NCBI GenBank assembly: GCA_046350755.1
Contig: JAXLZV010000001.1
Coordinates: 270,855 to 334,854 of the forward strand
Direction: 5' to 3'
DNA from: Candidatus Saccharimonadota bacterium
GTDB lineage: Bacteria > Patescibacteriota > Saccharimonadia > CAILAD01 > GCA-016700035
Length of the DNA stretch: 64,000 nt
Each line of letters starts with the position of its first letter. Positions within the stretch are counted from its first letter, which is position 1. The notes under the pieces were generated by a model. The model saw only the letters and a program-made list of their open reading frames with translations, did not search any database and was not told the origin of the DNA. The translations under genes were made by a program, and so were the position numbers. Below are positions 4,858-39,043 of this stretch, piece after piece.

Positions 4858-5067
4858 TTAAGCACCATACTTTCCGCCACCAAAACCACGCGGGCTAGAC
4901 TCCGGCTGACGCTTGGGTCGCGACTTTTTTTGACCAAGCTCAGACAAATTCTTCATAGCCGCCGAGACACCGACCACACCTGCCGCCGCCAAACCAATGT
5001 GCGCCAGAAAATCTTTCCGGCTCATCTTCTTATTGAGCAAGTCATCTATTGGGTTCTTGCGAGACAT
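4858..5067 (-). CDS. Small (55-69 aa) protein with a twin-arginine-like signal (SRKDFLAHIGLAAAGVVGVSAA), immediately downstream of tatC
   Basis: MSRKNPIDDLLNKKMSRKDFLAHIGLAAAGVVGVSAAMKNLSELG... has an S-R-K-x-F-L n-region/h-region like a Tat signal (RK variant), followed by only ~30 basic or Gly-rich residues. Confidence 0.45.
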   Translation of the reverse strand: MSRKNPIDDLLNKKMSRKDFLAHIGLAAAGVVGVSAAMKNLSELGQKKSRPKRQPESSPRGFGGGKYGA

Positions 5068-5087: not shown

Positions 5088-6143
5088 TTATGCTGTTCCG
5101 GGCGAGTGGATATCGATAATCGGACGGGTTGCTGTTGGCAATTGATAACGCCGTTTTGGTCCCCGGCGAACAACGTGGGTGACGCGAGCCGTCGACAGAT
5201 CAATCACGTGATCTTGAGCGGTTTTCGCCTGAGGTGAAGATAACTCACTGCGTGTGAAGCCCCGCTTGGGCTGGCTGAGAGTCGCAGGCGCCAAATCTGC
5301 GACCGGCATAAATGCGCGAGAATCAAGCTGAGTAGCAACGAATGGCTGCCGAGCTGATTCGCGGGCGGGAGCCAATGGCTGACTGATAGCTGGCTTTGGT
5401 CGTGGAGCCTCGACGGTGCGGCTGGCGTGCGGTCGTCGTTGGCGCCGCAGACGTTGCAGATAGATTAACGCCACACTGCCTTCAAAAAGTATCAGCATTG
5501 GTCCCGTAATCATCAGTTGATTATAAGGATCAGGGGTTGGCGTAATCATTGCGCCAATGATAAAACTCGCTGCAATGATTGGCTTTTGAGCTTTCTTGAG
5601 GGTTCCAGGTGGTATTGGCCGAATGTGGTCAATAAAGAAAAGAATCACCGGCAACTGGAAGATGGCAGCAGTACCGAGGAGATAGGCTGACAGGAATGAA
5701 ATGTACTCATTGGTCGTAATCAGTGCACGCACATCACTACCGCCCAGATCCAAGAGGAAGTGCAAAGCGCTCGGCAAACTAATCAGGTAAGCATAGACGA
5801 TGCCGAGAGCCGCCATACCTAGTGACGCTAGCATAATCATGACTGCCGAGCGAGTCGTGATCTTGCGATGAACCGGCCGAATAAATTGCACCAGCTGGTA
5901 AACCGCAGCTGGTAAAGCAACTGCCAAGCCCAACACCAGACTAATAAACATCATGTAGTTTAAGCCGCCGGTTGGCGAAGTAAAATACAGTGTCTCGCCC
6001 AGTGGCTTGGTCAGCAAATGAGAAAACGGCTTATACCAGATGAAGCCAGCTAACATACCAACAGCAAACAAAGCGGCCGGTATGCGGAGTCGCTTGCTCA
6101 GTTCCTGAAGATGTTCTCGAAACGTTTGCTGTTCGTGTGTCAT
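5088..6143 (-). CDS. tatC: Sec-independent protein translocase TatC
   Basis: 351 aa, six TM helices, conserved TatC N-terminus (HLQELSKRL), TatC-like overall organisation, and a C-terminal hydrophilic extension. Confidence 0.85.
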   Translation of the reverse strand: MTHEQQTFREHLQELSKRLRIPAALFAVGMLAGFIWYKPFSHLLTKPLGETLYFTSPTGGLNYMMFISLVLGLAVALPAAVYQLVQFIRPVHRKITTRSAVMIMLASLGMAALGIVYAYLISLPSALHFLLDLGGSDVRALITTNEYISFLSAYLLGTAAIFQLPVILFFIDHIRPIPPGTLKKAQKPIIAASFIIGAMITPTPDPYNQLMITGPMLILFEGSVALIYLQRLRRQRRPHASRTVEAPRPKPAISQPLAPARESARQPFVATQLDSRAFMPVADLAPATLSQPKRGFTRSELSSPQAKTAQDHVIDLSTARVTHVVRRGPKRRYQLPTATRPIIDIHSPGTA

Positions 6144-6202: not shown

Positions 6203-6391
6203 TTACTTTTTGGTCGAAGATTTCTTAGCAGATTTCTTTGGCTCTTCTTCCTCACCAAAGCCCTTTTTGACTTCCTTACCAAAGGTCCCAATACTCCGAC
6301 CTAGCTCAGGCAATTTGCTCGCGCCAAAAAGCAGAAGCAAAACCAACACGATCAAGATTAATTCCGGGAGACCAATTCCTAATACTTCCAC
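6203..6391 (-). CDS. tatA: Sec-independent protein translocase TatA/E
   Basis: 62 aa: MEVLGIGLPELILIVLVLLLLFGASKLPELGRSIGTFGKEVKKGF is the TatA TM helix, FG hinge and amphipathic helix. Sits upstream of tatC. Confidence 0.85.
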   Translation of the reverse strand: MEVLGIGLPELILIVLVLLLLFGASKLPELGRSIGTFGKEVKKGFGEEEEPKKSAKKSSTKK

Positions 6392-6539: not shown

Positions 6540-7277
6540 TTATGGCAAAGCTGCTATCGCAGGACTCAAGCAACTGGCGAAAGCTCGGTAGCCAGCTTGA
6601 TTGGGATGCCACCGATCGACACCTGGAGTGTAACTCCAATAATTGGGGTTGAGGGCCTCAACCGCGCTGTACGCATCTCTGAGTGACGGATTGCAATCGA
6701 TGATGTCACCGACCACGCCGCCTGATGAGAGCCAGGCGTTGTACTCCAGTCGGCTGTCATATCGATGGTCGTAAGACAGGCTGGGTGGGTATAGTGCGAA
6801 GGGCGTGATGGGCAGCCAGACGACGCGTACACCCCTGCTCGCCAGTTCGGCGCTCAAGCTCGCAACAGCGTCGATCAATCCCTGAACCGGCTGGTCGACT
6901 GCCAAATCATTGATTCCACCCGACACTATGACCATACCGACGTTGTTATCACAAACGTCTAGCTGCCGCAAAAGACGGGCGCCGATGTTGTATTCCGGGT
7001 TGACTGCCGTGAATCCAGCACCGCCCTTTGCAGTGTTGTAGGCGATAGAACCAATCGGCAACTGCATGTATTGCGGCCACTGACCAACCAGTGAATCGCC
7101 AGCGTAGATGACGACCCGAGGGCCAGGGATTGAACAAGTCAGCTCTGGCGGTGTCGTTGTGAGGGTCGTGGATGATCCAGTTATCGATGGCGATGTCATA
7201 CAGGCTGTGGCGAACATCGCCAGTAGGACTGTCACCATCATGACGAACAGCCAACGATGCTTCATGAGTGAACTCAT
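6540..7277 (-). CDS. SGNH/GDSL-family hydrolase (lipase/esterase), probable lipoprotein or secreted
   Basis: GDSL block IYAGDSLVGQW, GGIND block and C-terminal DxxH-like region. N-terminal signal MKHRWLFVMMVTVLLAMFATAC is a possible lipobox. Start chosen at the ATG at 7277 (M18 of the ORF); 7265 is also possible. Confidence 0.65.
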   Translation of the reverse strand: MSSLMKHRWLFVMMVTVLLAMFATACMTSPSITGSSTTLTTTPPELTCSIPGPRVVIYAGDSLVGQWPQYMQLPIGSIAYNTAKGGAGFTAVNPEYNIGARLLRQLDVCDNNVGMVIVSGGINDLAVDQPVQGLIDAVASLSAELASRGVRVVWLPITPFALYPPSLSYDHRYDSRLEYNAWLSSGGVVGDIIDCNPSLRDAYSAVEALNPNYWSYTPGVDRWHPNQAGYRAFASCLSPAIAALP

Positions 7278-7406
7278 ATCGAAACCTTTCGGATCGGGCT
7301 GGAAGGTGCGGATTGGTCGAGTAACCAAGCATGACTACGTTACATACATTAAGCAACTATGTCAAGATGCGGGCTAGCTGCGAGAGCTTATAAATGACCT
7401 TTTGGG

Positions 7407-7634
7407 CTATTGAGCGGCCGATGCTTCATCGAGACTGCGTTGCAGGTTCGCTGCATCGTTATCGAGTTTGTCGGCATCAGTTCGGGCCTTTTGTGCATCC
7501 TCGCGCATGTTACGAATCTGAGCCTCGAGTTCACTCGCCTGACGATCGAGCTCATCAGCCCGCTGACGTTGGCTCTGGGCTTGTTCGCGTAATGTATCTG
7601 GGTTCATGCTGTACTCCATAGCGCAGTGGATCAC
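7407..7634 (-). CDS. Small coiled-coil hypothetical protein
   Basis: 75 aa, heptad-rich Q/E/R/A sequence (LREQAQSQRQRADELDRQASELEAQIRNMREDAQKAR). Coding status is uncertain because the region reads similarly on both strands. Confidence 0.3.
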   Translation of the reverse strand: MIHCAMEYSMNPDTLREQAQSQRQRADELDRQASELEAQIRNMREDAQKARTDADKLDNDAANLQRSLDEASAAQ

Positions 7635-7749
7635 TGCATTAATTATGACTCACCGTCATTCTACCAAGAAAAACGCCCGCAGCAGGGTTGCTACAAGGCG
7701 GAATTAATTAGATTTTACGAGCTAGTGAGCCGCAATCGAGTCGACAATG

Positions 7750-8124
7750 CTAGGCGCGAGGGTTATTGGCGTCTGCGCAGGCCTCTGAGCCGTCATAGTA
7801 CAGACTCATACAGATAACGTGCCCACCTTCGTGACCGATGATCTGTTGGTTTGTGACATAGGCAGAGTCAACTACGATATCGAAGCTACACACAACGACA
7901 CATGTCCAGCTAGTGAAAGCGGCATATCCAACCGGCGGGGTCCCCACATGCCAGGTGACATTGTTCCCCCGAGGAATCGATGCAGGCTCCCAAACGGCAG
8001 CAATGGTCTGATTGAGTGGGCTTGAGGCTGGCCCGCTTGTAGGTGGCGCGCTAGCACAGGCCGCAAAGAGCACCATCATTATCATGATTGCCGGGATTCG
8101 GATCCTCATCACAAGGCCTTTCAA
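7750..8124 (-). CDS. Small lipoprotein carrying an HExxH motif (HEGGH); putative metal-binding protein or mini-metallopeptidase
   Basis: Signal with lipobox LFAACAS. IIGHEGGHVICM contains HExxH. Several Cys residues. Confidence 0.4.
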   Translation of the reverse strand: MKGLVMRIRIPAIMIMMVLFAACASAPPTSGPASSPLNQTIAAVWEPASIPRGNNVTWHVGTPPVGYAAFTSWTCVVVCSFDIVVDSAYVTNQQIIGHEGGHVICMSLYYDGSEACADANNPRA

Positions 8125-8237
8125 CTGAGGTGCGGTTGGCTAAGTTGCCAACTGTGATGATTGTAACCTACTTATGCTTAATTGATGAAATGCACGAAAA
8201 GAAATACCCACAGCGATAAAGCTATGGGTAGGAAATA

Positions 8238-9212
8238 TTAGTCACGACGCAAACGATCCAAAGCGCGTTCGAGGGCGTGTGGCTTCTCGTGATAGGTATG
8301 CGGCACGAGCGTCTGTCGGTGACACTCGTGAGCAATCTCATGCATGACGGCATGACAGTCGTCATCGGTCTCTATGAAAGTCGGCCCCAGGATGGTACAA
8401 GCCGGCGGCTCGTCACCATCGAGGTTGACGGCCACTGGGATGACCCAACCACGCATCAACTGCATGGTGCCGGCCTTCAGCGGCTGCATATGGATGCGCT
8501 CGCTGTAGAAGATGTCGCGCGACGCGCTGGGGGCGATAGCCAGCAGCCGTCCACCTGGTTCGAGAAACTCGGCCAACTCCAGCTTGGTCAGCTCATTACT
8601 GGTGCGCACCAAGTCATCCGGAAATTTCTTGTTGCGAACCGTCGGCGTAGTCGGAAAACTCAAAGCCACGTTGGCGAACATCTGAATAGCCTCGACAGCC
8701 GGCATGAAAAACTCGTCTTCGCGGATGTAGAGCTGGGTCGTCGTGATGCCACGACTGATTACCAGGGCGGTCCGCTGCGTGAACTCAAGGGCGCTCAACC
8801 AGCGCTCGATCTCCAATCGCAAGGCACCCGCCACCAAAGCGATGTCGATGATGTTGCTGTGATTGGTGATGAGCGTAAAGTTAGTCCGGCCCCGCAGCAT
8901 CTCCCCTGCCATGAATCGCATCATGTCGCTGTGCTGGCGCCAAGCTTCTGGAATGACTCGAAAATTCTTGTGAGCCTTCGGCCCAAAGGGAGCCAGATCG
9001 CGATTCGAAACCGCCACGCTAGGAACCATCGCCGTAGTCAGCCGATGATAGGGTTTTGATGGATCGAAACCCATCGGCAACAGCGGCCCAGTCGTATGGC
9101 GACTGCCTAGCTCAGCGAGCAACGGGTAGACCGCTTGAGAGTTGAACTGCTCGAGGCGGGTCTGCAACTCCCGTCGGCGAGAGGCGTAGCTCGTCATGTC
9201 GACTCCATTCAT
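8238..9212 (-). CDS. Lysophospholipid/glycerol-phosphate acyltransferase-family protein (PlsC-like, HxxxxD motif)
   Basis: 324 aa. LITNHSNIIDIALV carries the H(x4)D acyltransferase catalytic motif; a downstream FP.G..-like block (FPTTPTVRN) is present. Confidence 0.45.
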   Translation of the reverse strand: MNGVDMTSYASRRRELQTRLEQFNSQAVYPLLAELGSRHTTGPLLPMGFDPSKPYHRLTTAMVPSVAVSNRDLAPFGPKAHKNFRVIPEAWRQHSDMMRFMAGEMLRGRTNFTLITNHSNIIDIALVAGALRLEIERWLSALEFTQRTALVISRGITTTQLYIREDEFFMPAVEAIQMFANVALSFPTTPTVRNKKFPDDLVRTSNELTKLELAEFLEPGGRLLAIAPSASRDIFYSERIHMQPLKAGTMQLMRGWVIPVAVNLDGDEPPACTILGPTFIETDDDCHAVMHEIAHECHRQTLVPHTYHEKPHALERALDRLRRD

Positions 9213-9325
9213 AGTAGGTACAAGAACGGACTATATTATCCCAGATTAGCTCCAGATTACAAAGACCCTACCACGATCACGCGCAAAGCATACAGACTCA
9301 CTTGACGCTGAGGACTATAATAGTA

Positions 9326-10141
9326 ATGCACTCATTTTTACATGGAAAAACCATAATTCAATCTCAAAGAGAGCCAAAGTCGAACCATCGACACAGATAT
9401 ATGACTACTCAATTCAGTCCTGATTATTCCCACGCAGTCGACCAGCTTGCTACTTCCCAGCTGGCGGAGCAAGATTACGCTACCCTTTTACAGCAGTCCA
9501 AAAGTATCGCTCGCAGACTAGATGTCCCTCAGTCGCTTCAGGAGACAGTCTTCCAGCTCCTCGCCCAGCTCCATCAGCACGACCAAAAAACCGCCAAAGA
9601 GTGCTTGCAGGCTCTCCCGCTGGCCCTCAAAGTTGCTCAAATCTACAGTCAATTCTACTCGCAGCCCGTGAACCTCAGCTACGTTTGGTCAGCGGCTATC
9701 CTGCACGATATCGGCAAAACTCACATACCTCAGTCGTTGATCACCAAAAGTAATCGTGGCCTTGAGTGGACCGACGCCGACCGAGAGCAGATGATGCATC
9801 ATGTTCAAGCTGGCTATACTATCGCACGAGCTCATCATCTACCTACTCCGGTCTGTCGAGCCATTGCCGAACACCATCATAAACAGCTAGGCGTCTCATA
9901 CGGCATGAATCCCCAGCTCAATGATATCGAACGCATCATCCGCGACAGTATCGCCATCGCCGACTTTACCGACGCCGACCTGAACCGTACCAATTGCCGT
10001 AATGCCACCAAGAACCGCCAGCAACGACTGGCAGAAATCATTGATGATATTATCTTTGTTTTTAATGACTATACGTATGGAAACCTATTGGCTCAGCTGA
10101 CTTTCCAGCAGCTGGCGCAGCCAGCCTACGCTTTTCGCTAG
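9326..10141 (+). CDS. HD-domain (HDIG) metal-dependent phosphohydrolase
   Basis: AAILHDIGKTHIP (HDIG) and downstream His/Asp residues (HHVQAGYTIARAHHLP). The ORF track starts at TTG 9302; I chose the first ATG (9326). 9401 is another option. Confidence 0.55.
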   Translation: MHSFLHGKTIIQSQREPKSNHRHRYMTTQFSPDYSHAVDQLATSQLAEQDYATLLQQSKSIARRLDVPQSLQETVFQLLAQLHQHDQKTAKECLQALPLALKVAQIYSQFYSQPVNLSYVWSAAILHDIGKTHIPQSLITKSNRGLEWTDADREQMMHHVQAGYTIARAHHLPTPVCRAIAEHHHKQLGVSYGMNPQLNDIERIIRDSIAIADFTDADLNRTNCRNATKNRQQRLAEIIDDIIFVFNDYTYGNLLAQLTFQQLAQPAYAFR

Positions 10142-10189
10142 ACTGATAGCCATTATCCACTCTGCAGATTTTCGGACTATACTGACAGT

Positions 10190-10882
10190 ATGGGTCCAAT
10201 CGTTCTGCTAGCCATTGTCATCTTCGGCCTGATCATCCTGGGTATTATTGTAGCTTTTAGCCCGACACTGATTCTGACGCAAGTTGCGATCTTAACGCGC
10301 TCAAAGCGGCCAATTCTTGATTCGGCCGCCCTGATAAGCGGTATTTTAGTGCCGATTGTTATTTATGGGGCTCTAGCCTATCTGTTTGTCGACCAAATCA
10401 CGACCTTCCAACTACCGTCACCACGAACTACCATTGCTAGCTTGCCTTTCATCGATGTCCTGGCTGGCGCACTGCTCCTTGTAGCCGGCCTGCGCTTACG
10501 TCGACCCCGCCAAGCTCAGCGTGCAGCGGCTGAGGCCGAACAACCCCACAAACTCATGAGCCCAAAAGCTCTCTTTGCCTTCGGCCTCATTAAGATGGCA
10601 ACCAGCCTGAGTAGTATCGCTGCGATTCTGATTGGCGTGCAGTTTATTGAAAGTTATATTACCGGCAATGTCTGGCAGGCTATGGCTCTGATTGGCTTCA
10701 TGGTGATTTCGATCTTCCCATTTTTGCTGATTGCCTCACTTCAAGCCTACTTCCCACATGTCTTCCAGCGCGTGAAATCCTCATCCGACCGCGTGGCCCA
10801 GCTCGACTGGATCAGTATCCTGAGCTGGATGCTGATTCTGGCCGGTACCGGCTTCGTCGCCTCGGGCTTACTCAATCTCTAA
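10190..10882 (+). CDS. Polytopic membrane protein of unknown function
   Basis: 230 aa, about 6 predicted TM helices; no recognisable catalytic motif. Confidence 0.4.
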   Translation: MGPIVLLAIVIFGLIILGIIVAFSPTLILTQVAILTRSKRPILDSAALISGILVPIVIYGALAYLFVDQITTFQLPSPRTTIASLPFIDVLAGALLLVAGLRLRRPRQAQRAAAEAEQPHKLMSPKALFAFGLIKMATSLSSIAAILIGVQFIESYITGNVWQAMALIGFMVISIFPFLLIASLQAYFPHVFQRVKSSSDRVAQLDWISILSWMLILAGTGFVASGLLNL

Positions 10883-11016
10883 ACCCATACAAGATGATCA
10901 AACAATTAAAAATGGCTGGGATAGTGGGATAGCGACTTCGCCTCCTCCGCTCGCAGCTGCTCGAAACAAGTTTCTGCGCGGTTACGGTTCGAATACCCTC
11001 AAGCGCTAGGCCAATG

Positions 11017-11040
11017 TTAAAACCCAGCTTTCACTGGGCT
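11017..11040 (-). terminator. Rho-independent terminator downstream of tRNA-Gln
   Basis: The minus strand reads AAAGCCCAGTGAAAGCTGGGTTTT: a GC hairpin followed by a U-tract. Confidence 0.6.
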
Positions 11041-11047
11041 TTAACAT

Positions 11048-11122
11048 TGGCTGGGATGGTAGGATTCGAACCTACGATCTCCTGTGCCAGAAACAGGCGC
11101 CTTACCACTTGGCCACATCCCA
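11048..11122 (-). tRNA. tRNA-Gln (anticodon CUG)
   Basis: Reverse complement TGGGATGTGGCCAAGTGGTAAGGCGCCTGTTTCTGGCACAGGAGATCGTAGGTTCGAATCCTACCATCCCAGCCA folds as a 75-nt cloverleaf: 7-bp acceptor stem, anticodon loop UUCUGGC (anticodon CUG), T-loop GGTTCGAATCC, encoded CCA. Confidence 0.85.
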
Positions 11123-11263
11123 ATAGTTATTCAGTTTTTTCAGAGCTCGATTTTTTTCAATTTGTACCGAGAAATTATACCTGATTTAGTGACATTTGAC
11201 CAGGTATTTATCCAAGAGATTGCCCCCGCACAACGCTGTGCGGGGGCTTGTATCATCCGCTCA

Positions 11264-11980
11264 TTAGGCGGCGAGCGTGAGATGCGGTCCCGACTCGAGC
11301 TGGTCGAGAACACCATCGACATATCTGTGCAGCGCTCGATGCCAGATGACCCCCAGGTGCTCAGCCCAACCATCGACTAGCTCGATGCCATGGCTGCGCG
11401 TCAGGCCAGCCCGAATGAGCAAGCGGTGGAGAAAGGCTGGTGCCAGTACGACGTTGTGGGCGCCGGACACCGTCGAGGCGAACCACGGCACCACCAGCTC
11501 GTCCATCACCGAGAAAAGTGAGTAGACGTTATCGGCCGTGAACGACTGATCCTCACGCAGCTCATGCAGATAGCGCGAGTGAGCAGCCATCGTACGAATC
11601 GCCGGCAACCAACTCAGAATCTGACCGAGATTTGCCAGCCGGGTGCCATGAAATGGTGCACCGAAGGCAATCACCGCCACGACCAGCCCAGAGAAATACT
11701 TGCCGTGATGCAGGGCATGCAAGGCACCCTGGCTGTGGCCGACCAAGATATAGCGCCGTTCTGGATTCGGCAGAAACACCTTAGTAGCCAGCTCGTCCGA
11801 AGCATCCTCCAGATGGCCGAGACCAAGCTTGGGAATTGCTAAGATGACAACGTCATAGCCGCGAGCCTCAAAGACTCGTGCCAGCGGCCGGTACACGCAA
11901 GCCGCTAGCTGAGGGCAGAATGTACCCATGTAGATCACAACCGTGGTGTTTTCGAGTGGAGTAGCTGCTGACTCGGACAC
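11264..11980 (-). CDS. Alpha/beta-hydrolase-fold esterase/lipase (GHSQG nucleophile elbow)
   Basis: 238 aa. VGHSQGALHA is GxSxG; the organisation resembles class-2 lipase or PGAP1-like hydrolases. Confidence 0.55.
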   Translation of the reverse strand: MSESAATPLENTTVVIYMGTFCPQLAACVYRPLARVFEARGYDVVILAIPKLGLGHLEDASDELATKVFLPNPERRYILVGHSQGALHALHHGKYFSGLVVAVIAFGAPFHGTRLANLGQILSWLPAIRTMAAHSRYLHELREDQSFTADNVYSLFSVMDELVVPWFASTVSGAHNVVLAPAFLHRLLIRAGLTRSHGIELVDGWAEHLGVIWHRALHRYVDGVLDQLESGPHLTLAA

Positions 11981-12148
11981 GATTCCCCCTTTCCGAGTCT
12001 CGGGTTTGGATTTTGAAGTACGCGCTTGGGTTACACGAAAGCGTTACGGCCATCCTACGCCGGCCCGAACGGAAATACTAGTGCGGTCTAGCTCTCCCAG
12101 ATTGAATCTGGCATAATAAGCCACAGCTTCGACTCTGGAGGAGAAATC

Positions 12149-12988
12149 ATGAGGCTTCGTACCTTCATACGTCAGGCCGCGCGTAGTCGCGTTCGGCCTG
12201 GTACCGCCGTACTTATCGGCCTTGGTGTGTCACAAGTCGCCAATCTCGCCACCACCATCTACTTGCATCGCCAGTTGGCTCATCGTGCCCTCGAGCTCGA
12301 TCCACGGTTGGCGCGCACCTGCGAGCTGATCGTTCGCTGTTCGACCGGCATGGTCCCGCTCGAATGGGCGGCCATCCATCAGCAGCACCACGCCCATACG
12401 GATGAGCCGGGTGATCCCCACTCACCACTCATCGAGGGACTCTATGAGGTGCAAGCCCATAACGTTCGTCTCTATAAGGAAGCCAAGGACACTCCGGATG
12501 TCCAACGACGGCTTCAAGTTTTGACCAAGAACAATCCCGGCCAGCTCGACTGGTTGAGTGGTGGTCGCGGGCTGGCCATCGGTATCGGCACCGCAATCGT
12601 TGTCTTTGGGCCAATTCCAGGCCTGATCATCTCACTGGTCCATTGGCCGGTTTACATCGGCCAGAGTGCCAGCGTGAATGGCGTCGGACACGCCGGCATG
12701 GACGCTGTCACGATGAAGCAGCAGAATCTCCGGTCACGCGTTCTGTGGCGGATAGCTCAGCGCTTCGGTTATCGCAACTTCGACACGCCGGACACGAGCT
12801 GGAACCTGCCGCCCCTCGCCTTTGCCACAGCTGGGGAGGGTTACCATAACAACCACCATGCACAGCCCGAATCACCGACTTTCGCCCTCCAGCCGGGTGA
12901 GCTTGACCTGGGTTGGGTAGTGATCAAGGCGCTGCAGCGACGTCAGCTGGTGACAATTCGCGAGTCGGAGCTCACGAGTCCCAGCTAA
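12149..12988 (+). CDS. Membrane fatty-acid (acyl-CoA/acyl-lipid) desaturase family protein
   Basis: Three His boxes: HRQLAH (HxxxxH), HQQHHAHTD (HxxHH) and HNNHHAQP (HxxHH), with hydrophobic segments between them. This is the classic di-iron membrane desaturase arrangement. Confidence 0.65.
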   Translation: MRLRTFIRQAARSRVRPGTAVLIGLGVSQVANLATTIYLHRQLAHRALELDPRLARTCELIVRCSTGMVPLEWAAIHQQHHAHTDEPGDPHSPLIEGLYEVQAHNVRLYKEAKDTPDVQRRLQVLTKNNPGQLDWLSGGRGLAIGIGTAIVVFGPIPGLIISLVHWPVYIGQSASVNGVGHAGMDAVTMKQQNLRSRVLWRIAQRFGYRNFDTPDTSWNLPPLAFATAGEGYHNNHHAQPESPTFALQPGELDLGWVVIKALQRRQLVTIRESELTSPS

Positions 12989-13083
12989 ACCATTGGGGAT
13001 TTCGATACGTCGAGATCCCCAAATTTTTTACTTTATAAATTGCTTGTGCTAGTATCAAGCCAAGTAACCTAATAGGTCTTATA

Positions 13084-14229
13084 ATGCCCAAGAAAAAGAA
13101 AACTCTAACAAAATCATCACGCACTCCACAGTCAAAAACTGGTAGCCTTAAGTCATTTAAGCTCAAGCCGTGGCATATCCTGACAGGTATCGCCCTGTTT
13201 GTCGTTGGTGGGTTTGTGGTGGCTTTTTCGCAAGCGGCAACCCAAACTCAAGGCCGGATAGCTCAAGACAAAGTCCTGATAAGCTTCGAGGATACGAGTC
13301 AGCCAGTGGTACTATCAGCTCCACTCGGGGCTGAGCCAAGTTTTTCGCTCGCCCCACAGACAATTGACGTTACAACCGATGGGACTATCTACTGCCTGCC
13401 TGCTAATGCAACTGAGGGACAAACTGGGCAATTACCCACCGCTAAACTTAAGGACCTCAAAGCCTTTTTAGCCCAACAAGCGCCTATCCAACTACCTGAA
13501 GCGCAAACTGATGCCGTTGTAGCGACTCAGACCGCCAGCTTCCGCACAGCCGACGGCGGGCCACTTCAAACTGTTGTTACTAAAGATGTAACGAATATCA
13601 ATAATTCGCTCGGAAAGCTGAAGAATAGTCTAGAAAAAGCTTGCACAAATGCCAATAAGCCAATGAAGCGAGCTGGTAAGCCCAGCTTTAATCAAAAGCC
13701 AGACGTACCAACTGCATCACCTGAAGCGATTAGTCGGCTGATTATCCCAACCGCACATGCGGCGATTCAAGACCCCTGGACTCAGGCTTTTGACGCCAAG
13801 CTGAAAGCTTTGGTCGGCGAATACCGTGCCCAAAATTCTAAACAGGTTGCCTGGGAACAAACTTGTTTGCTCAATATGTCGCTCTGGTGGTCACAGAGTA
13901 TGGCTGATCGCTACGGTCTACGACACATTTCGACAGTGCAATCGTATACCGATACTGCCGTATTTTTCTGCGCAAACCTCGGTAGCTTTGGCTTCGCCCT
14001 TGGTGAAAATGTTGGTTGGGTACCGCTAGCGGCTAGCTATCCAACTCCTGAGGCTGCGGCTCAAAAATTATTCGACACCTACAAGGCCAGCCCGGAACAT
14101 AATGCCAATATGCTTGATCCGCGCTGGAATCGCTGGGGCACAACCTCAGTTCTGACGAATGACAGGAATAATGTCTACAATACGCAAGAATTCTTGATGA
14201 TTAATTCGAATTATCAAAAGACTAAGTAG
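13084..14229 (+). CDS. Membrane-anchored secreted protein with a C-terminal CAP/SCP (YkwD-like) domain
   Basis: N-terminal basic region plus one TM. The C-terminus has GENVGW and SPEHNANMLDPRWNRWG, matching the bacterial CAP-domain signature SPGHRANILNP..G. Confidence 0.5.
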   Translation: MPKKKKTLTKSSRTPQSKTGSLKSFKLKPWHILTGIALFVVGGFVVAFSQAATQTQGRIAQDKVLISFEDTSQPVVLSAPLGAEPSFSLAPQTIDVTTDGTIYCLPANATEGQTGQLPTAKLKDLKAFLAQQAPIQLPEAQTDAVVATQTASFRTADGGPLQTVVTKDVTNINNSLGKLKNSLEKACTNANKPMKRAGKPSFNQKPDVPTASPEAISRLIIPTAHAAIQDPWTQAFDAKLKALVGEYRAQNSKQVAWEQTCLLNMSLWWSQSMADRYGLRHISTVQSYTDTAVFFCANLGSFGFALGENVGWVPLAASYPTPEAAAQKLFDTYKASPEHNANMLDPRWNRWGTTSVLTNDRNNVYNTQEFLMINSNYQKTK

Positions 14230-20011: not shown

Positions 20012-20743
20012 CTAGGGCTGTCGCTCGATGTCATCCGGCTGCACCACGATGAGCCCAAGTTCAGCCCCAACTCGCACAACTGCCACTGGATGAACCGACT
20101 TATTTGCCACCACCTCATGATCACTGTCGGGATTAGCTTCGAACTCATGAGCCGGAAGTATATATAGCAAGCTATCCGTAAAAGGCACCTCTCCCCGCGC
20201 CATGGCTTCAGTCAGAGCTGGTGAGAACTCGACTGTCCGTCCATCTTCGCTGCGAAACGGTTTAAGGGCATAGGTCTGTCCCCCATTCGGGTTGGCGTCA
20301 CGAAAACGGTGCTCGATCAATGCATGAGTCAATCCACCTTTCAGGCGTGTAGTGGCATAAACCCGCTTGCGGCTTTCTTCTTGATGTGAATACTGTGGGT
20401 CGAGCGCATCCCATGCATCCACATCTGGCATTCCGGCATCACGACGGTATTCATTATCTTGCATACCGTGGTATACATATTTTCCCTCTAGATCGAGTAA
20501 CTTCAGTAAGCTATAGGTCTGCTCAGGATCACTCGATCTCAAATCAAGAACTGGATAACCGTGTTCACTCGTATCCGCATCTACTTTCTGGCCCGATTTG
20601 TGCTCCCATGCCTGGACTTTACCAAGTAGCTCTTGATAGCCTGACTGACGCTCGGCTAAAGTCCGTAAATCATCTTGAGTTTCTGCAGCCCCATCAAGCT
20701 TATTATCTGATACTTCTGGCTGCTGCCTGTCAGATTCCAGCAT
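20012..20743 (-). CDS. Hypothetical protein (243 aa) between rnc and smc
   Basis: Acidic N-terminus; no recognisable motif. Tightly packed with flanking genes. Confidence 0.35.
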
Positions 20744-23038: not shown

Positions 23039-23608
23039 TCAGCCGCCAGCAGGGGGAGAATCCGACGCTTCGGCGTAGGCCTTGGTGAGACGCTGGATCT
23101 CCGACGAGGCCTTACTGACCTCGATGGCCCCGGGTTCCCCCGACTTGGCCGGCACGGCGAAGAACTCGCCAGGTGCCAACTGGGTGCCGGTGGTGGCGGT
23201 GAGGAGCCGTGAAAGTCGCAGCCACTCGGCCTGATAGCGCGCCAGCTCGAGAGCCTTGGCGTCATCGCTGAGCTTGTCCTCACGGATGCGAGTCTCGAGC
23301 AGCGTGTTCGGGAACACCGCGAGTGCGGCAGTCTCGAGCGTGTCGCCCTGGCGTGCCTGAAGGATGATCGTGTGGTCGTAGACCGCACTGATGTCCTCGG
23401 CATGCTTCACCTCGCTGGGACGTCCATCGATGAAGAAGATGAACATCACGGCCGTGAAGACGATGAGCGCGAGAACGATCAGCCCTCGCCACAGCTTGCC
23501 GGAACGAGGGGTGTCCTCAATCGGCTGCGCACGGCTCTTGAGCGGCGACTTGCCGGAAGTCGACCCACCCTTGCTGGGGGCGGGAGGATCTTGTGTGACG
23601 GACGACAT
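23039..23608 (-). CDS. Membrane-anchored hypothetical protein encoded in a conspicuously high-GC patch
   Basis: 189 aa: Ser/Pro-rich N-terminus, one TM (LIVLALIVFTAVMFIFFI), then an extracytoplasmic domain. I hand-counted 68 G/C in the first 100 nt of its sequence, versus about 52 in leuS. Confidence 0.45.
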   Translation of the reverse strand: MSSVTQDPPAPSKGGSTSGKSPLKSRAQPIEDTPRSGKLWRGLIVLALIVFTAVMFIFFIDGRPSEVKHAEDISAVYDHTIILQARQGDTLETAALAVFPNTLLETRIREDKLSDDAKALELARYQAEWLRLSRLLTATTGTQLAPGEFFAVPAKSGEPGAIEVSKASSEIQRLTKAYAEASDSPPAGG

Positions 23609-31585: not shown

Positions 31586-32740
31586 CTATCTATTACGAAC
31601 TTTCCATCGAAATAGCCATACCATAATTAAGAAAGAGCCCATAGCAAGTAATCCTCTTAGAAAGATAAAACCGCCACTACTCCCAACCCGGGGCAATTGC
31701 CCAGAAGCCGGAATAACCGATGGGCCTGCTGTGGGGTTGCCGGAAGAAACAGGTGGCGAAACGATTCCGCTCAGTCGACCAATTGCATTCCCATCACCTT
31801 CGACAAACCAAATATTATCATCTAGTCCAGCTACAATACCATTCGGCAAACTAGCATTTGTAGGGATCGAGTACTCAGTAATCACGCCTGATGTCGTTAT
31901 GCGTGCGACGTTATTACCATTTGACTGTGTAAACCATAAGTTATCATCAGGACCTAACGCGATATAGAAAGATGCGCTATTCGCGGTCGGGATGGGGAAC
32001 TCAGTCACTACTCCGCTCGTGGTAATCCGACCAATACTGTTACTCGAAGTTTCGGTAAACCACAAGTTGCCATCAGAGCCAGCTGTAATACCTGCAGGGT
32101 TCGCACCAGGAGTAGAGATCGGAAACTCTGTGACAACACCGCTAGTTGTGATGCGACCAATGTTATTGCCAAGATATTCCGAAAACCATAAATTCCCATC
32201 AGGACCTGAGGTAATAACGGATGGTATCCCGCCTGAAGTAGGAATAGGATATTCGGTTACAACTCCGGCCGTGGTAATGCGACCGATGTTTCCAGCCTGC
32301 TCGGTAAACCACAGATTCCCGTCAGGGCCGACTACCAACCCAACTGGAGTGCTATTTGGAGTTAAGACAGGAAACTCTGTGACAACACCGCTAGTTGTGA
32401 TGCGACCAATGTTATTGCCATTCCCTTCCGTAAACCACAAATTACCATCGGGGCCAGTCACTATAGTTATTGGATAGCTGCTATTAGTGGGTAGCGAGAA
32501 TTCAGTCATCAACCCTGAAGATGTGACACGCCCTATCTGATTGCCATTACTTTCCGTAAACCACAAATTACCATCGGGGCCAGTCGTTATAATACCTAGC
32601 CCACAAGATGGTGTGGGAACAGAAAACTCCGAGAAGGTCGGTGCAGCTAGTGTGTGAACTGGTGAAATCACCGTAATAATGGCAATCACGAAACAAATTG
32701 AGATGACTTTAGTCGTACTCAGAGAAAAGTGAGAAAGCAT
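31586..32740 (-). CDS. Secreted Vgb (virginiamycin B lyase)-like beta-propeller repeat protein with a C-terminal sorting-signal-like tail
   Basis: About 7 repeats of GPDGNLWFTE..NNIGRITTSGVVTEFP, matching the Vgb blade motif WFTE..NKIGRIT..G.ITEY.LP. N-terminal signal peptide; C-terminus LPRVG plus hydrophobic stretch plus RWKVRNR. Confidence 0.65.
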   Translation of the reverse strand: MLSHFSLSTTKVISICFVIAIITVISPVHTLAAPTFSEFSVPTPSCGLGIITTGPDGNLWFTESNGNQIGRVTSSGLMTEFSLPTNSSYPITIVTGPDGNLWFTEGNGNNIGRITTSGVVTEFPVLTPNSTPVGLVVGPDGNLWFTEQAGNIGRITTAGVVTEYPIPTSGGIPSVITSGPDGNLWFSEYLGNNIGRITTSGVVTEFPISTPGANPAGITAGSDGNLWFTETSSNSIGRITTSGVVTEFPIPTANSASFYIALGPDDNLWFTQSNGNNVARITTSGVITEYSIPTNASLPNGIVAGLDDNIWFVEGDGNAIGRLSGIVSPPVSSGNPTAGPSVIPASGQLPRVGSSGGFIFLRGLLAMGSFLIMVWLFRWKVRNR

Positions 32741-32819: not shown

Positions 32820-34367
32820 CTATCGAACACCCGGCGTTGGGAAAGTTTCCGTACGCCTTGTAGCCTGTCGTGAGGTGCGATTGCGGATGATGCCGGCCGC
32901 TGGCACGACGGTAAATGCGAGTGCGGCCGCCAAGAACAGCCAGAGGTTCTCTCCGGTATTCGCGAGGCCGGTGCCCGTCGAACTAGCGGTGGTCGCCAGC
33001 CCAACTGGATCGACGATGATGCCGTTCTCCGCACCATCATCATCCAGGGATCCGCCATCAGTGATGGAGTACGTGAGCTTAAGGGCATGATGGCCGTTCA
33101 GAGTCGTCTCGGTGATAACAGCGCCAGGAATGTCTGAGAATGTCTGAACACTCGAGTGATACTTCCGGGCTGTCACTTGGTTCGGGAGCAGATCAGTCTC
33201 AAAGGTGAGATTGACCACCTGCGTCGAGCCCGTGGGCGCAGTCATGGTGAAGTTCACCAGGCCAAGTGGATACATCTGACCAGTATCTGTCTTGGGTAGC
33301 GAGCTAGCTGCCGTGGCACTCAGAGCTGTAATACTCGTACCATCCCCTGTCTGCAGCTGGATGTCTGGCGAGCCACCTGGCTGATTCACCGTCTTGGTGG
33401 TGATGGGAAGTTCGAGGCGGCCGATGTTGTTAGTTCCCGCTTCAGCGAACCAGATATTGTCTTGGCCGGCGGCAACAACAAAGGTCGAGCTACCGGGGCT
33501 TGGTATCGAGTATTCGGTAATGACTCCAGCTGCGTTAATACGACCTACATTATTGCCAATAATTTCCGCGAACCACATATTACCATCAATTCCGGTAGTT
33601 ATAAATCCTGGAGCAGAGCTCGATGTAGGCACAGGATACTCAGTGATTGTGCCGGCTGGTGTTATACGTCCAATATTATTGCCAGTATTCTCTGTGAACC
33701 ATAGATTGCCGTCAGAGCCACTCGTTATACCAGCTGGGAAACTAGTGAGTGTTGGCGTTGGGAATTCTGTAATACTGCCTGCAGGAGTAATGCGACCAAT
33801 ATTGCTTCCTTCCGCTTCTGTGAACCATAGATTGCCGTCAGAGCCAGCGATAATCCCGAATGGACTGCTCAACTGTGTTGGTATCGGGAATTCGGTGATT
33901 ACGCCAGAAGTTGTAATCCGACCAATATTGTTTCCCGCTGTTTCTGTGAACCAGAGGTTTCCATCGGGTCCTATGGTGATACCAAGTGGCTCACTGTTAG
34001 GGGTTAATATCGAGAATTCTGTAATATCACCACTTGGGGTGATGCGACCAACATTATTGCCTCCCGCCTCTGTGAACCAGAGGTTTCCATCGGGTCCTAT
34101 GGTGATAAATCTCGATAATGAGCCTGGGGTCGGTATTGCATACTCTGTAATATCACCACTTGGGGTGATGCGACCAACATTGTTGCCTCCCGCCTCTGTG
34201 AACCACGTATTACCGTCGGGTCCAGCTACAATACCTGTTGGCATTGCGTTCGGCGTAGATATCGGATACTCCGTAATATCATTCGGCGCAGCTAGCGCCT
34301 TACATGGGACTACTACTGCTAGTGCAGCTACGGTAAGTCCAGTTACTATTAGTCGCCAAGTACGCAC
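32820..34367 (-). CDS. Secreted Vgb-like beta-propeller repeat protein (8+ blades) with an extra C-terminal domain and a LAxTG-type sortase signal
   Basis: Same blade motif, repeated. C-terminal LANTG, then a hydrophobic segment, then a basic tail (cell-wall sorting signal of the class-E LAxTG type). Confidence 0.65.
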   Translation of the reverse strand: MRTWRLIVTGLTVAALAVVVPCKALAAPNDITEYPISTPNAMPTGIVAGPDGNTWFTEAGGNNVGRITPSGDITEYAIPTPGSLSRFITIGPDGNLWFTEAGGNNVGRITPSGDITEFSILTPNSEPLGITIGPDGNLWFTETAGNNIGRITTSGVITEFPIPTQLSSPFGIIAGSDGNLWFTEAEGSNIGRITPAGSITEFPTPTLTSFPAGITSGSDGNLWFTENTGNNIGRITPAGTITEYPVPTSSSAPGFITTGIDGNMWFAEIIGNNVGRINAAGVITEYSIPSPGSSTFVVAAGQDNIWFAEAGTNNIGRLELPITTKTVNQPGGSPDIQLQTGDGTSITALSATAASSLPKTDTGQMYPLGLVNFTMTAPTGSTQVVNLTFETDLLPNQVTARKYHSSVQTFSDIPGAVITETTLNGHHALKLTYSITDGGSLDDDGAENGIIVDPVGLATTASSTGTGLANTGENLWLFLAAALAFTVVPAAGIIRNRTSRQATRRTETFPTPGVR

Positions 34368-34723: not shown

Positions 34724-35146
34724 TTGGTGGACCTTGTGAGTCAGTATTCGCGGTCACGGTTGCATCTGGAAAGGCGAACCATAACCGGATTCAATACGAA
34801 CGTGAGATGGATCGGGGCGAAGGGATCGTCTGTCGAGGGTGGTTCTGCGGTACACACCCTCTCTACATCTCGCCATCGGCACTTGTCGTCAAATGAGGCC
34901 GCAGAGCTTGTAGCTCGATACCGAAGTGGAGAGAAGATCAAGGATCTAGCTGCCAGCTACAAGATTCACCGCTCCACGGTGATGGCGCACCTCCGCAGAG
35001 CTGGGGAGCTGAAGCACAAGGGCTGGACCGACGAAACAACGGCCGAAGCCAGGAAGCTCAGAGCTGCCGGCCTAACGATCGTGGAGGTCGCAGCCAGACT
35101 TGGACGACCACCGTCGACGGTCCAGAGACGGCTGAACCAGAATTAA
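34724..35146 (+). CDS. Helix-turn-helix DNA-binding protein (two HTH-like segments; resembles N-terminal DNA-binding modules of transposases/resolvases); copy 1
   Basis: 140 aa: ...LVARYRSGEKIKDLAASYKIHRSTVMAHLRRAG...LTIVEVAARLGRPPSTVQRRL. High GC. Paralogue of 35883..36296. Confidence 0.5.
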   Translation: MVDLVSQYSRSRLHLERRTITGFNTNVRWIGAKGSSVEGGSAVHTLSTSRHRHLSSNEAAELVARYRSGEKIKDLAASYKIHRSTVMAHLRRAGELKHKGWTDETTAEARKLRAAGLTIVEVAARLGRPPSTVQRRLNQN

Positions 35147-35625: not shown

Positions 35626-35882
35626 TTGCTCCTCCGAACGTCATGCTGACTCTCAGCAGGACGTGGAAAGGAGCAAGTACTTTGCGAACAGCGGAACCCG
35701 CACACTTTACCATATTTAATCAATTTTGGGAATACCGCGGGATGCATCAAAGGCGGTTGACGCGCAGCTCACAAACTGAGAAGACGAAAATAGACCCTTG
35801 CATAGGGCCTACATCTTGAATATCATCTGTCCTACAGCTTCTGAAAGATGTCAGAAGTCGGGTTTCTATTGGTGTCTTACTG

Positions 35883-36296
35883 GTGGACGTACTGAGACAG
35901 TATTCGCGGTTAGCTGCCTATCTCGAAAACCGAACCATAACCGGTTTTCATCCGAACACGAGATGGGTTGGCGCCAAGGGATCGTCCGTCGAGGCCGTCC
36001 AGCCGTCACTCTCTACATCTCGCCATCGGCGCCTGTCGTCAAGTGAAGTGGCCGAGCTCGTAGCTCGATATAGAGGCGGCGAGAAGATCAAAGACCTGGC
36101 TGTCAGCTACAAGATCCACCGCTCCACCGTGATGGCACACCTCCGCAAGGCCGGAGAGCTGAAGCACAAGGGGTGGACCGACGAAACCACGGCCGAGGCA
36201 CGATGGCTCCGGGATGCCGGGCTGACGATCGCGGAGATTGCGGCCAGGCTCGGCCGACCGCCTTCGACGGTGCAGAGGCGGCTGAGTCGGGGTTAA
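35883..36296 (+). CDS. Helix-turn-helix DNA-binding protein; copy 2 (paralogue of 34724..35146)
   Basis: 137 aa, about 80% identical to copy 1 by hand alignment. Confidence 0.5.
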   Translation: MDVLRQYSRLAAYLENRTITGFHPNTRWVGAKGSSVEAVQPSLSTSRHRRLSSSEVAELVARYRGGEKIKDLAVSYKIHRSTVMAHLRKAGELKHKGWTDETTAEARWLRDAGLTIAEIAARLGRPPSTVQRRLSRG

Positions 36297-36712
36297 TGCA
36301 TTGAATGGTCCATCATCATCGATGAATCGTAAGTTCCGTAGCCCCAATCTGAATACCAAGCTTCCATACGATCAATCTCAGATGTTTGAGCAGCAATAAT
36401 GTCACGACCCAGCGCCTTCACTTCCTCATGCTTGGCACGATCGTTGATCAATTCAGCCATCTCTATCGCCCCCTCGTGATGAGGAATCATCTGACGGATG
36501 AACTCCTTGTCAAACTCATCCCCCTCTTTATCGCGCAACATCGCAACCATGTGATCCATCGAACCTTCGCTATACATCATCTGAGACTTATCGATCGACT
36601 GCGGTTCAGACTTTGCAGTTGCCTGCATCACACCAAACGTCACGCTTGCCCCAACAATGAGACCTACTATTCCAAACAAGATCTGCTCTTTATTCATAAT
36701 TACTCCCTCCAT
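36293..36712 (-). CDS. DUF305-family protein (metal/copper-resistance associated), membrane-anchored
   Basis: MIPHHEGAIEMAE is the DUF305 HHxGAI signature; N-terminal TM; downstream of the copper ATPase. Confidence 0.6.
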   Translation of the reverse strand: MEGVIMNKEQILFGIVGLIVGASVTFGVMQATAKSEPQSIDKSQMMYSEGSMDHMVAMLRDKEGDEFDKEFIRQMIPHHEGAIEMAELINDRAKHEEVKALGRDIIAAQTSEIDRMEAWYSDWGYGTYDSSMMMDHSMH

Positions 36713-38753: not shown

Positions 38754-39043
38754 GATTTCACCAAGCGATCAACTGCTGCTATTGCCTCATCGAGCTTTTC
38801 TCGGCCCGCTACCGAATCACTCCGAACTGCATCCACTACGCAATGATCCAAATGGTCACGCAAAAGCGAAAGCGCTACTCGATCGAGTGCACCGTTAACG
38901 GCACTTACCTGGTCGAGAACGTCGATGCAGTATCGATCCTCGTCAACCATCTTGCGTACGCCTCTGATCTGCCCTTCTATTCGCGACAGTCTCTTCAATA
39001 TTGCCTGTTTGTCAGAGCTGTATCCAGCCATAGCCTTACTCAC
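38750..39043 (-). CDS. csoR: CsoR/RcnR-family metal-sensing transcriptional repressor (copper-sensitive operon repressor)
   Basis: 97 aa; the conserved C..H...C ligand pattern (RYCIDVLDQ...RDHLDHC) typical of CsoR; 4-nt overlap with copB. Confidence 0.75.
   Translation of the reverse strand: MSKAMAGYSSDKQAILKRLSRIEGQIRGVRKMVDEDRYCIDVLDQVSAVNGALDRVALSLLRDHLDHCVVDAVRSDSVAGREKLDEAIAAVDRLVKS

Follow-up and report, generated by a model that had tools for sequence, protein, structure and literature searches.

Members of the Patescibacteria lack lipid synthesis, and by 2024 no mechanism of lipid uptake or breakdown had been identified in them (PMC11665869); how they obtain and maintain their membranes is an acknowledged gap. 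Membranes of the candidate phyla radiation are rich in lysolipids and presumably scavenged (PMC7242380), and a lysophospholipase has been gained by horizontal gene transfer in a Patescibacterium (PMC12455944). Moreover, cultured Saccharibacteria, which are epibionts of Actinobacteria (PMC11665869), change the lipid organisation of their hosts (PMC10939385). Here, we analysed a 64,000-nucleotide stretch of a Candidatus Saccharimonadota genome (contig JAXLZV010000001.1, positions 270,855 to 334,854; hereafter the window), which has a GC content of 53% and contains no rRNA. An original prediction, made from the sequence, had pointed to a concentration of four lipid-related genes within about 6.5 kb of the window, encoding an SGNH/GDSL hydrolase, an acyltransferase, a lipase and a membrane fatty-acid desaturase. 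All four open reading frames (ORFs) are present where they had been placed, but they are neither conserved nor co-transcribed as a unit. Of the four genes, only the lipase and the desaturase form a recurring association, and the desaturase was likely acquired once by horizontal transfer. Close homologues carry the names Candidatus Saccharibacteria or Patescibacteria, in agreement with the type of organism that had been presumed, and the exact desaturase sequence occurs in 22 public contigs, among them the NCBI metagenome-assembled genome (MAG) GCA_041910195.1.

The desaturase (12149-12988, forward strand, 279 aa) is a short-form membrane protein of the Δ9-type SCD/DesA family. It scored 62.7 bits against Pfam FA_desaturase (cut-off 29.7) and carries the three histidine boxes HRQLAH (40-45), HQQHH (77-81) and HNNHH (233-237), with N177 and H181 as N-X3-H ligands. 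All ten metal-ligand positions (H40, H45, H77, H80, H81, N177, H181, H233, H236 and H237) are invariant in an alignment of 83 sequences. Stearoyl-CoA desaturases were the only matches in a PDB sequence search, the AlphaFold2 model is very confident (pLDDT 95.7), and the fold is SCD-like as opposed to that of AlkB or of sphingolipid hydroxylases. Because the Pfam, DesA-family and PDB matches, the invariant ligands and the confident model agree, the identification as a membrane desaturase stands, and a hydroxylase or other non-lipid enzyme is not what the His-box protein turned out to resemble. The top NCBIfam model was that of the DesA family (NF049918), at 164.9 bits and thus below its equivalog cut-off of 400, and within its 385 profile positions the best stretch is confined to the N-terminal 174. 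Judged by these profiles, the protein is a relative of DesA and not an equivalog, and O2-dependent Δ9 desaturation is its predicted activity.

Compared with the described enzymes of this family, the window protein is short and divergent. Its identity to mouse SCD1 (PDB 4ymk) is only 19%, and on our reading of the model the first transmembrane helix of SCD1 is apparently replaced by a short basic amphipathic helix. Bacterial DesA Δ9 desaturases of 390 aa, such as that of Pseudomonas aeruginosa, have a C-terminal extension of ~110 aa that is missing here. Box 2, which reads HRKHH in SCD1 and DesA, is HQQHH in the window protein, and an insertion of ~23 aa specific to Saccharibacteria follows H181.

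A membrane desaturase had been called unusual in such genomes, and the database searches bear this out. Among 5.8 billion protein clusters, only six desaturase clusters were closer than 48% identity, all of them, as looked up, in Saccharibacteria-type gene contexts, and a scan of JGI metagenome contigs returned no relative of the Saccharibacteria desaturase above 42% identity. The next tier of matches consisted of short forms of 240-265 aa at ~36-45% identity, with the 390-aa proteobacterial DesA coming after those. All five named members of the short-form tier are Acidimicrobiia, an assignment based on these five NCBI entries and on the high GC of the loci (median 66% for the short-form loci from JGI metagenomes). 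The Acidimicrobiia-annotated short forms (~250 aa) are the closest relatives outside the Saccharibacteria and share the ligand set and the short architecture of the window desaturase, but they have neither the 23-aa insertion nor the extended, basic N-terminus; at the one locus inspected, a TetR regulator neighbours the desaturase. The Saccharibacteria proteins are set apart from their relatives by these two features and by HQQHH in place of HRKHH.

With the long forms as root of the neighbor-joining trees, the Saccharibacteria desaturases were monophyletic in 100 of 100 bootstrap replicates, and their clade was nested inside the short-form radiation in 93 of 100. The GC content at third codon positions (GC3) of the desaturase gene ranks first or second among the tabulated genes of the window and of four related loci (L022, L025, L026 and L028; L-numbers designate sequences compared with the window), and third of nine in L023. 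Rarity, the Acidimicrobiia short-form tier, the nesting and the high GC3 together support the view that the gene was acquired once, by horizontal transfer from an Actinobacteria-like donor, and has been inherited vertically since. We consider this likely and do not put it more strongly, because the trees were built by neighbor joining without model testing and with sparse taxon labels. The donor was most likely an Acidimicrobiia-like actinobacterium, to judge from the same comparisons.

Rarity in the phylum and a GC3 above that of the neighbouring genes would also be expected if the desaturase were a mis-binned contaminant or a decaying transferred gene. Synteny and conservation effectively refute this possibility. 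The gene lies in a contiguous 64-kb window among typical Saccharibacteria housekeeping genes, with queA-trmD-khpA-rpsP-smc following downstream of the adjoining CAP/YkwD-like gene, and the same layout by queA-trmD-rpsP-smc recurs in independent assemblies as well as in seven lineages, which by now share ~50-56% identity. The metal ligands are invariant, as described above, and the promoter element is conserved. Indeed, an extended -10-like element, TCTGGCATAAT (12107-12121, forward strand), lies ~30 nt 5' of the start codon and occurs only once within the window; the upstream pattern TCTGnCATAAT plus GGAG, a -10 element with a ribosome-binding site, is kept in five of six lineages. Directly 3' of the stop codon, on the same strand, is a strong terminator-like hairpin with a 13-bp stem and a T-run (12993-13022). 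With all di-iron ligands, a conserved promoter of its own and its own terminator, the desaturase is best explained as a gene that has been kept functional, insofar as these predicted features can tell.

The lipase-like hydrolase (11264-11980, reverse strand, 238 aa) is transcribed divergently from the desaturase. It passed the Pfam Abhydrolase_6 cut-off (27.7 bits against 26.3), and its family comprises 42 clusters, in which the GHSQG nucleophile S83 and the triad partners D160 and H208 are invariant (20 sequences). A family profile matched a Streptomyces lipase in the PDB (5h6b, E 1.7e-16), then the family I lipases of Proteus and Burkholderia, with more than 15 PDB lipase entries below 1e-7; the call as a GHSQG alpha/beta-hydrolase of lipase type thus holds. 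The described family I lipases (Streptomyces sp. 5h6b/5h6g, Proteus, Burkholderia, Pseudomonas; profile E 1.7e-16 to 1e-8) share with it the GHSQG motif, the Ser-Asp-His triad and the oxyanion GTF segment. In contrast to these exported enzymes, the window hydrolase has no signal peptide and is only 238 aa long. Its N-terminus begins at the first beta-strand, no signal peptide was found on the Saccharibacteria hydrolases shown, and a hydrophobic leader with a cysteine is seen only in a distant homologue (P0188). As there is no signal peptide, the hydrolase is presumably cytoplasmic.

We found a lipase homologue at most one gene away from the desaturase in all seven Saccharibacteria loci with enough flanking sequence (the window, L022, L023, L025, L026/27, L028 and L110). 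The two genes are arranged divergently or convergently, sometimes with a PrsW protease gene or a small ORF in between, and the pairing has survived at least two local rearrangements. The short-form desaturase loci from JGI metagenomes served as the negative control: a lipase homologue was absent within ~6 kb, where flank was available, of all 80 such loci outside the Saccharibacteria. This figure, together with the TetR neighbour at the inspected locus, led us to reject a joint arrival of the pair from Actinobacteria. In L022, the 240-aa ORF that lies upstream of the desaturase was considered as a lipase homologue and ruled out, as it is not homologous.

The closest described relatives of the acyltransferase (8238-9212, reverse strand, 324 aa, unannotated) are the soluble glycerol-3-phosphate acyltransferases (GPATs) of plastids. 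The protein is carried by 15 species genomes labelled Saccharibacteria, Saccharimonadia, Patescibacteria or 'bacterium'; several of the record names suggest lake or river metagenomes, on our reading of the isolate labels. It gave no match in Pfam or NCBIfam, none to Pfam Acyltransferase (PF01553) at E<=0.01, and no PDB match by simple sequence search. Its close family consists of 26 Saccharibacteria-restricted clusters without precomputed domains, and a profile search of 1.84 billion representatives returned only 249 proteins at E<=0.001. PF01553, which did not match the window protein itself, was matched by 18 of the 97 members of the extended family, with a best E of 2.7e-7. The catalytic HX4D block I reads NHSNIID, with H118 and D123 unchanged throughout 27 sequences and H118 throughout 97, and the protein has the GPAT/AGPAT superfamily fold. 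A profile of the 97 sequences reached the chloroplast GPAT 8ia1 (E 1.2e-7) and the squash enzyme 1iuq/1k30 (1.9e-6), with an alignment spanning APSG..D and NH....D and including the plastid-type IAPSGGRD block.

Because this profile matches chloroplast GPAT and 18 of 97 members match PF01553, we place the acyltransferase, on profile similarity, as a divergent member of the GPAT/AGPAT superfamily that is nearer to soluble GPAT than to PlsC. Identity to the plastid enzymes (squash 1iuq/1k30, chloroplast 8ia1) is ~14%, and whereas plastid GPAT uses acyl-ACP, no acyl carrier protein (ACP) is known for the window organism. The HX4D lysophospholipid and lipid acyltransferases PlsC of Thermotoga maritima (5kym), tafazzin, PatA and LpxM all scored below GPAT, and neither the PlsC two-helix membrane anchor nor the FPEGTR-type block III was seen in the window protein. 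The four domain calls of the original prediction hold at the superfamily level; the protein called PlsC-like is nearer to soluble GPAT, and the lipid link of the SGNH protein, discussed below, is not established.

A CDP-alcohol phosphatidyltransferase, also predicted at the outset, is encoded at 48806-49651 (forward strand). It scored 67 bits against Pfam (cut-off 22) and contains the full DGx2ARx8Gx3Dx3D motif, as DGPLARQLDAVSDFGKAIDPAAD, which together bear out that call; the enzyme is PgsA-like, with 52.3 bits against the PgsA equivalog TIGR00560 and thus below its cut-off of 109.1. We searched 50 window ORFs against Pfam and NCBIfam, namely seven short ORFs and all those of at least 150 aa except shadow ORFs that overlap others and a few with annotation from L001-L003 only; most smaller ORFs in the uncovered gaps of the window were inspected by eye only. 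No match was found to type II fatty-acid synthesis (FAS-II), ACP, acyl-CoA or acyl-ACP synthetase, PlsX/PlsY or CdsA, and cytochrome b5 was not found in the window scans. The absence of FAS-II rests on the literature at the level of the phylum (PMC11665869, PMC10939385) and on the 64-kb scans for the window.

The fourth gene of the region (6540-7328, reverse strand) encodes, by its motifs, an SGNH lipoprotein. It scored above the cut-offs for Lipase_GDSL_2 (39.5 bits against 32.9) and Lipase_GDSL (38.5 against 23.6); the translation contains the SGNH blocks YAGDSL, GGINDL and DRWHPN and a lipobox, ...MFATAC, and the true start is likely an ATG 17 codons in. Family and export as a lipoprotein are therefore as had been called, but a role on lipids is not: since papers on acetyl-xylan and carbohydrate esterases cite the best solved relative of the protein, 7TOG (E 1e-6), the lipid-related label is not established. 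The protein may instead act on acetyl groups of the host cell wall. Between its gene and that of the acyltransferase lies a gene for a small lipoprotein of 124 aa with a HEGGH (HExxH-like) motif (7750-8124, reverse strand), for which no Pfam or NCBIfam match was found and which is followed by its own terminator-like hairpin (7697-7676).

These two predicted surface lipoproteins raise the question of whether the enzymes are directed at the host and not at the membrane of the cell itself. In that case, the hydrolase and the SGNH lipoprotein would attack the host envelope, by lipid release or by deacetylation of wall polymers, and the desaturase would detoxify or modify incoming saturated fatty acids of the host. 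Among solved structures, the hydrolase is closest to secreted lipases, and cultured Saccharibacteria, as noted above, live on Actinobacteria (PMC11665869) whose lipid organisation they alter (PMC10939385). Against this stand the absence of a signal peptide from every Saccharibacteria member of the hydrolase family shown, the lack of conservation of the SGNH gene with the others, and the fact that secretion-system genes were not seen beside the hydrolase and SGNH genes in the window scans. We therefore regard a host-directed role as improbable.

We favour a salvage and remodelling toolkit for acquired glycerolipids that would work in the manner of a Lands cycle, a reading to which we give an even chance of being right. 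It is the most economical one because the literature describes an absence of lipid synthesis, lysolipid-rich membranes, perturbation of host lipids and a lysophospholipase gained by horizontal transfer. The scheme builds on the folds and catalytic residues, on rarity and phylogenetic placement, and on gene-neighbourhood statistics, with the enzymology taken at family level; the substrates, acyl donors, direction of acyl flow, electron donor and coupling between the three enzymes are what we infer. On the inner membrane face, acyl chains would be removed or lysolipids made by the hydrolase; the acyltransferase would re-esterify a phosphate-bearing glycerol acceptor, and the PgsA-like enzyme would supply head-group chemistry. 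The desaturase would insert a cis double bond using O2, so that membrane fluidity could be tuned without acyl chains being chosen by synthesis. The 'uptake and tailoring of host-derived acyl chains' proposed in the original prediction is accordingly a reasonable but unproven description.

A number of observations weigh against this toolkit. The window scans revealed no acyl-activating enzyme, ACP, ferredoxin or reductase, and a hydrolase without a signal peptide cannot reach host lipids directly. In squash GPAT, R235 and R237 are basic residues that bind glycerol-3-phosphate; the equivalent of R235 (R232) varies between R, K, E, H and Q across the acyltransferase family, and that of R237 is Ile, with a conserved VRxK stretch further upstream. 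Because the plant arginines are not conserved, the acceptor may not be glycerol-3-phosphate. Elsewhere, the acyltransferase gene is flanked by dnaE-rplS on one side and rnhB-nusA on the other, or by DUF308-dus-tRNA synthetase genes, and 12 of 15 other acyltransferase loci have no lipase or desaturase gene in the available flanks. Lipase homologues also adjoin queA in two lineages without the desaturase (L109 and L111), so the desaturase may have landed beside a pre-existing lipase gene, and the adjacency may in part reflect inheritance and not selection. Finally, the lipid genes of the 6.5-13 kb region lie on alternating strands, in separate transcription units.

Several of these points would fit a coincidental neighbourhood, in which each enzyme acts independently and no salvage pathway links them: the acyltransferase in housekeeping phospholipid synthesis, the desaturase in adapting the cell's own membrane to cold or in its fluidity, the hydrolase as a general esterase, and the SGNH protein as an O-acetyl esterase of carbohydrate or peptidoglycan, in keeping with the papers that cite its nearest solved relative. 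A four-gene operon was rejected on the strand layout and the predicted terminators. Given the alternating strands, the terminator-like hairpins, including a strong one after the acyltransferase gene (8230-8205, reverse strand), and the desaturase's own conserved -10 element, the concentration is, as read from these signals, not an operon. Nor are the four genes a conserved unit: the acyltransferase gene sits among housekeeping genes in 14 other genomes, and L002, whose sequence is 100% identical to that of the window, is the only contig in which we found the SGNH gene together with the other three; no other species showed this. Because it is placed among housekeeping genes in other genomes, the acyltransferase gene shows the pattern of a core gene in the relatives.

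The clustering itself was evaluated by random-placement simulation, assuming 800-1000 genes of which 6-15 are lipid genes. Three or more lipid genes within eight consecutive genes gave p of ~0.003-0.08; when the lipase-desaturase pair was counted as one unit and the SGNH gene dropped, two units were left and p was 0.2-0.8, so that the clustering is no longer significant. Its significance thus depends on debatable choices. On the other side, chance does not readily account for the lipase-desaturase adjacency, present in 7/7 Saccharibacteria loci against 0/80 control loci and maintained through at least two local rearrangements, nor for the acyltransferase gene, which adjoins the lipase homologue in L018 and lies within ~7 kb of the pair in L022. 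Moreover, ranks 2-5 for GC3 among 46 window ORFs are held by the PgsA-like transferase, the acyltransferase, the desaturase and the lipase (0.66-0.71; mean 0.557, sd 0.071), behind an unannotated 189-aa ORF at 23039-23608 (0.79). This hints at a shared history or expression regime of the four lipid enzymes; a foreign origin and a common expression regime are both possible. On balance, we judge coincidence unlikely, yet the strongest competitor of the salvage and remodelling toolkit.

Some neighbouring genes may also bear on lipids. A multi-pass membrane protein of the SfLAP family (PF11139, 'sulfolipid-1-addressing protein'; 10190-10882, forward strand; Pfam 38.1 bits against a cut-off of 35) had not been listed before and is a possible lipid-handling protein; the family owes its name to a mycobacterial sulfolipid-addressing protein. 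A homologue lies ~4 kb from the acyltransferase gene in L015 (3043-3738), and a fragment upstream of the lipase-desaturase pair in L025 (1-189). Downstream of the desaturase, a membrane-anchored protein with a C-terminal CAP/YkwD-like domain (13084-14229, forward strand; NCBIfam YkwD, E 7.7e-4) has counterparts at ~30% identity, so that such a gene follows the desaturase in four lineages (the window, L110:2919-4088, L025:4835-5974 and L026:7701-8882); the L110 homologue has a weak precomputed match to PF00188 CAP and a YkwD match at E 3.7e-6. Binding of sterols and fatty acids occurs among eukaryotic CAP proteins, in some of them, and the window protein is, speculatively and by analogy, a candidate external lipid-binding protein. 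Neither the CAP-like nor the SfLAP protein had a PDB match by sequence search. An HD/HDIG phosphohydrolase (9302-10141, forward strand; Pfam HD 48.1 bits, TIGR00277 45 bits) has no evident lipid link.

Two further neighbours were considered in related loci. A 14-helix MFS pump of the DHA2/EmrB type, absent from the window, adjoins the acyltransferase or the lipase homologue in two lineages each (L014:4132-5550, L022:776-2362, L109:3519-5123, L111:139-1743); it was rejected as a lysophospholipid transporter, being a generic efflux pump. A VTT/DedA protein adjoining the lipase in L018 resembles undecaprenyl-phosphate transporters; neither it nor the MFS pump strengthens the case for lipids.

Between the SfLAP and lipase genes, ARAGORN and Rfam identified a tRNA-Gln(CTG) gene (11048-11122, reverse strand). 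A MAG of the same species at NCBI (L001) is 99.9% identical to the window rightwards of 11045 only, and to the left of the tRNA-Gln 3' end its positions 1-2442 hold different DNA encoding an FtsK/SpoIIIE-family protein; this break in synteny looks like a strain-specific integrative element sitting at the tRNA gene. The segment 20019-20755 is absent from a related strain (L003, 98% identity) and contains a 243-aa ORF (20012-20743) without a family match. Near the left end, tatC and a tatA-like small ORF adjoin a 69-aa ORF (4858-5067, 5088-6143 and 6203-6391), the N-terminus of which, SRKDFL and then a hydrophobic stretch, resembles by eye a signal of the twin-arginine type. Two adjoining genes at 31586-32740 and 32820-34367 encode beta-propellers of the virginiamycin-B-lyase family (Pfam Vgb_lyase, E ~1e-107 to 1e-109) and may confer streptogramin-type resistance, which would fit life on antibiotic-producing Actinobacteria. 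A direct repeat (34725-35146 and 35881-36296; ~420 nt per copy, ~1.15 kb spacing, 81-87% nucleotide identity) encodes two paralogous ORFs of ~140 aa, each with two resolvase-type helix-turn-helix domains, beside genes for a DUF305 protein (36293-36712), a P-type ATPase (36723-38753) and a CsoR-like metal repressor (38750-39043).

If the salvage and remodelling toolkit is real, it would be the first concrete pathway of this kind proposed for Patescibacteria, and the apparent Acidimicrobiia origin of the desaturase would hint at which uncultured bacteria these Saccharibacteria live on. In its boldest form, the proposal is that a subclade of Saccharibacteria, whose named relatives are largely from freshwater, makes and adjusts its membrane with neither fatty-acid synthesis nor ACP, relying on a lineage-specific acyltransferase of plastid-GPAT-like type, a lipase in the cytoplasm and a Δ9 desaturase taken from its actinobacterial (Acidimicrobiia) host lineage; we think it doubtful that all of this would hold together. 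To our knowledge, the lipase-desaturase pair specific to Saccharibacteria, the probable descent of the desaturase from Actinobacteria and the acyltransferase family missed by domain databases are new within the searchable literature. The enzymes come from well-known superfamilies, and the advance would lie in biological context and not in new chemistry. The desaturase with its complete active site, the ever-adjacent lipase-like hydrolase and the database-missed acyltransferase are three cloneable candidates, open to standard heterologous expression without culturing the organism.

Among known systems, the nearest parallels are deacylation and reacylation of the Lands-cycle type and the salvage of exogenous lipids by fatty-acid auxotrophs. 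The known salvage components LplT/Aas, FakAB and PlsX/PlsY were not identified in the window, and the likeness is one of logic and not of homology. It is the same logic that the hydrolase and the acyltransferase of the window would follow, in which one enzyme deacylates and the other reacylates pre-formed glycerolipids.

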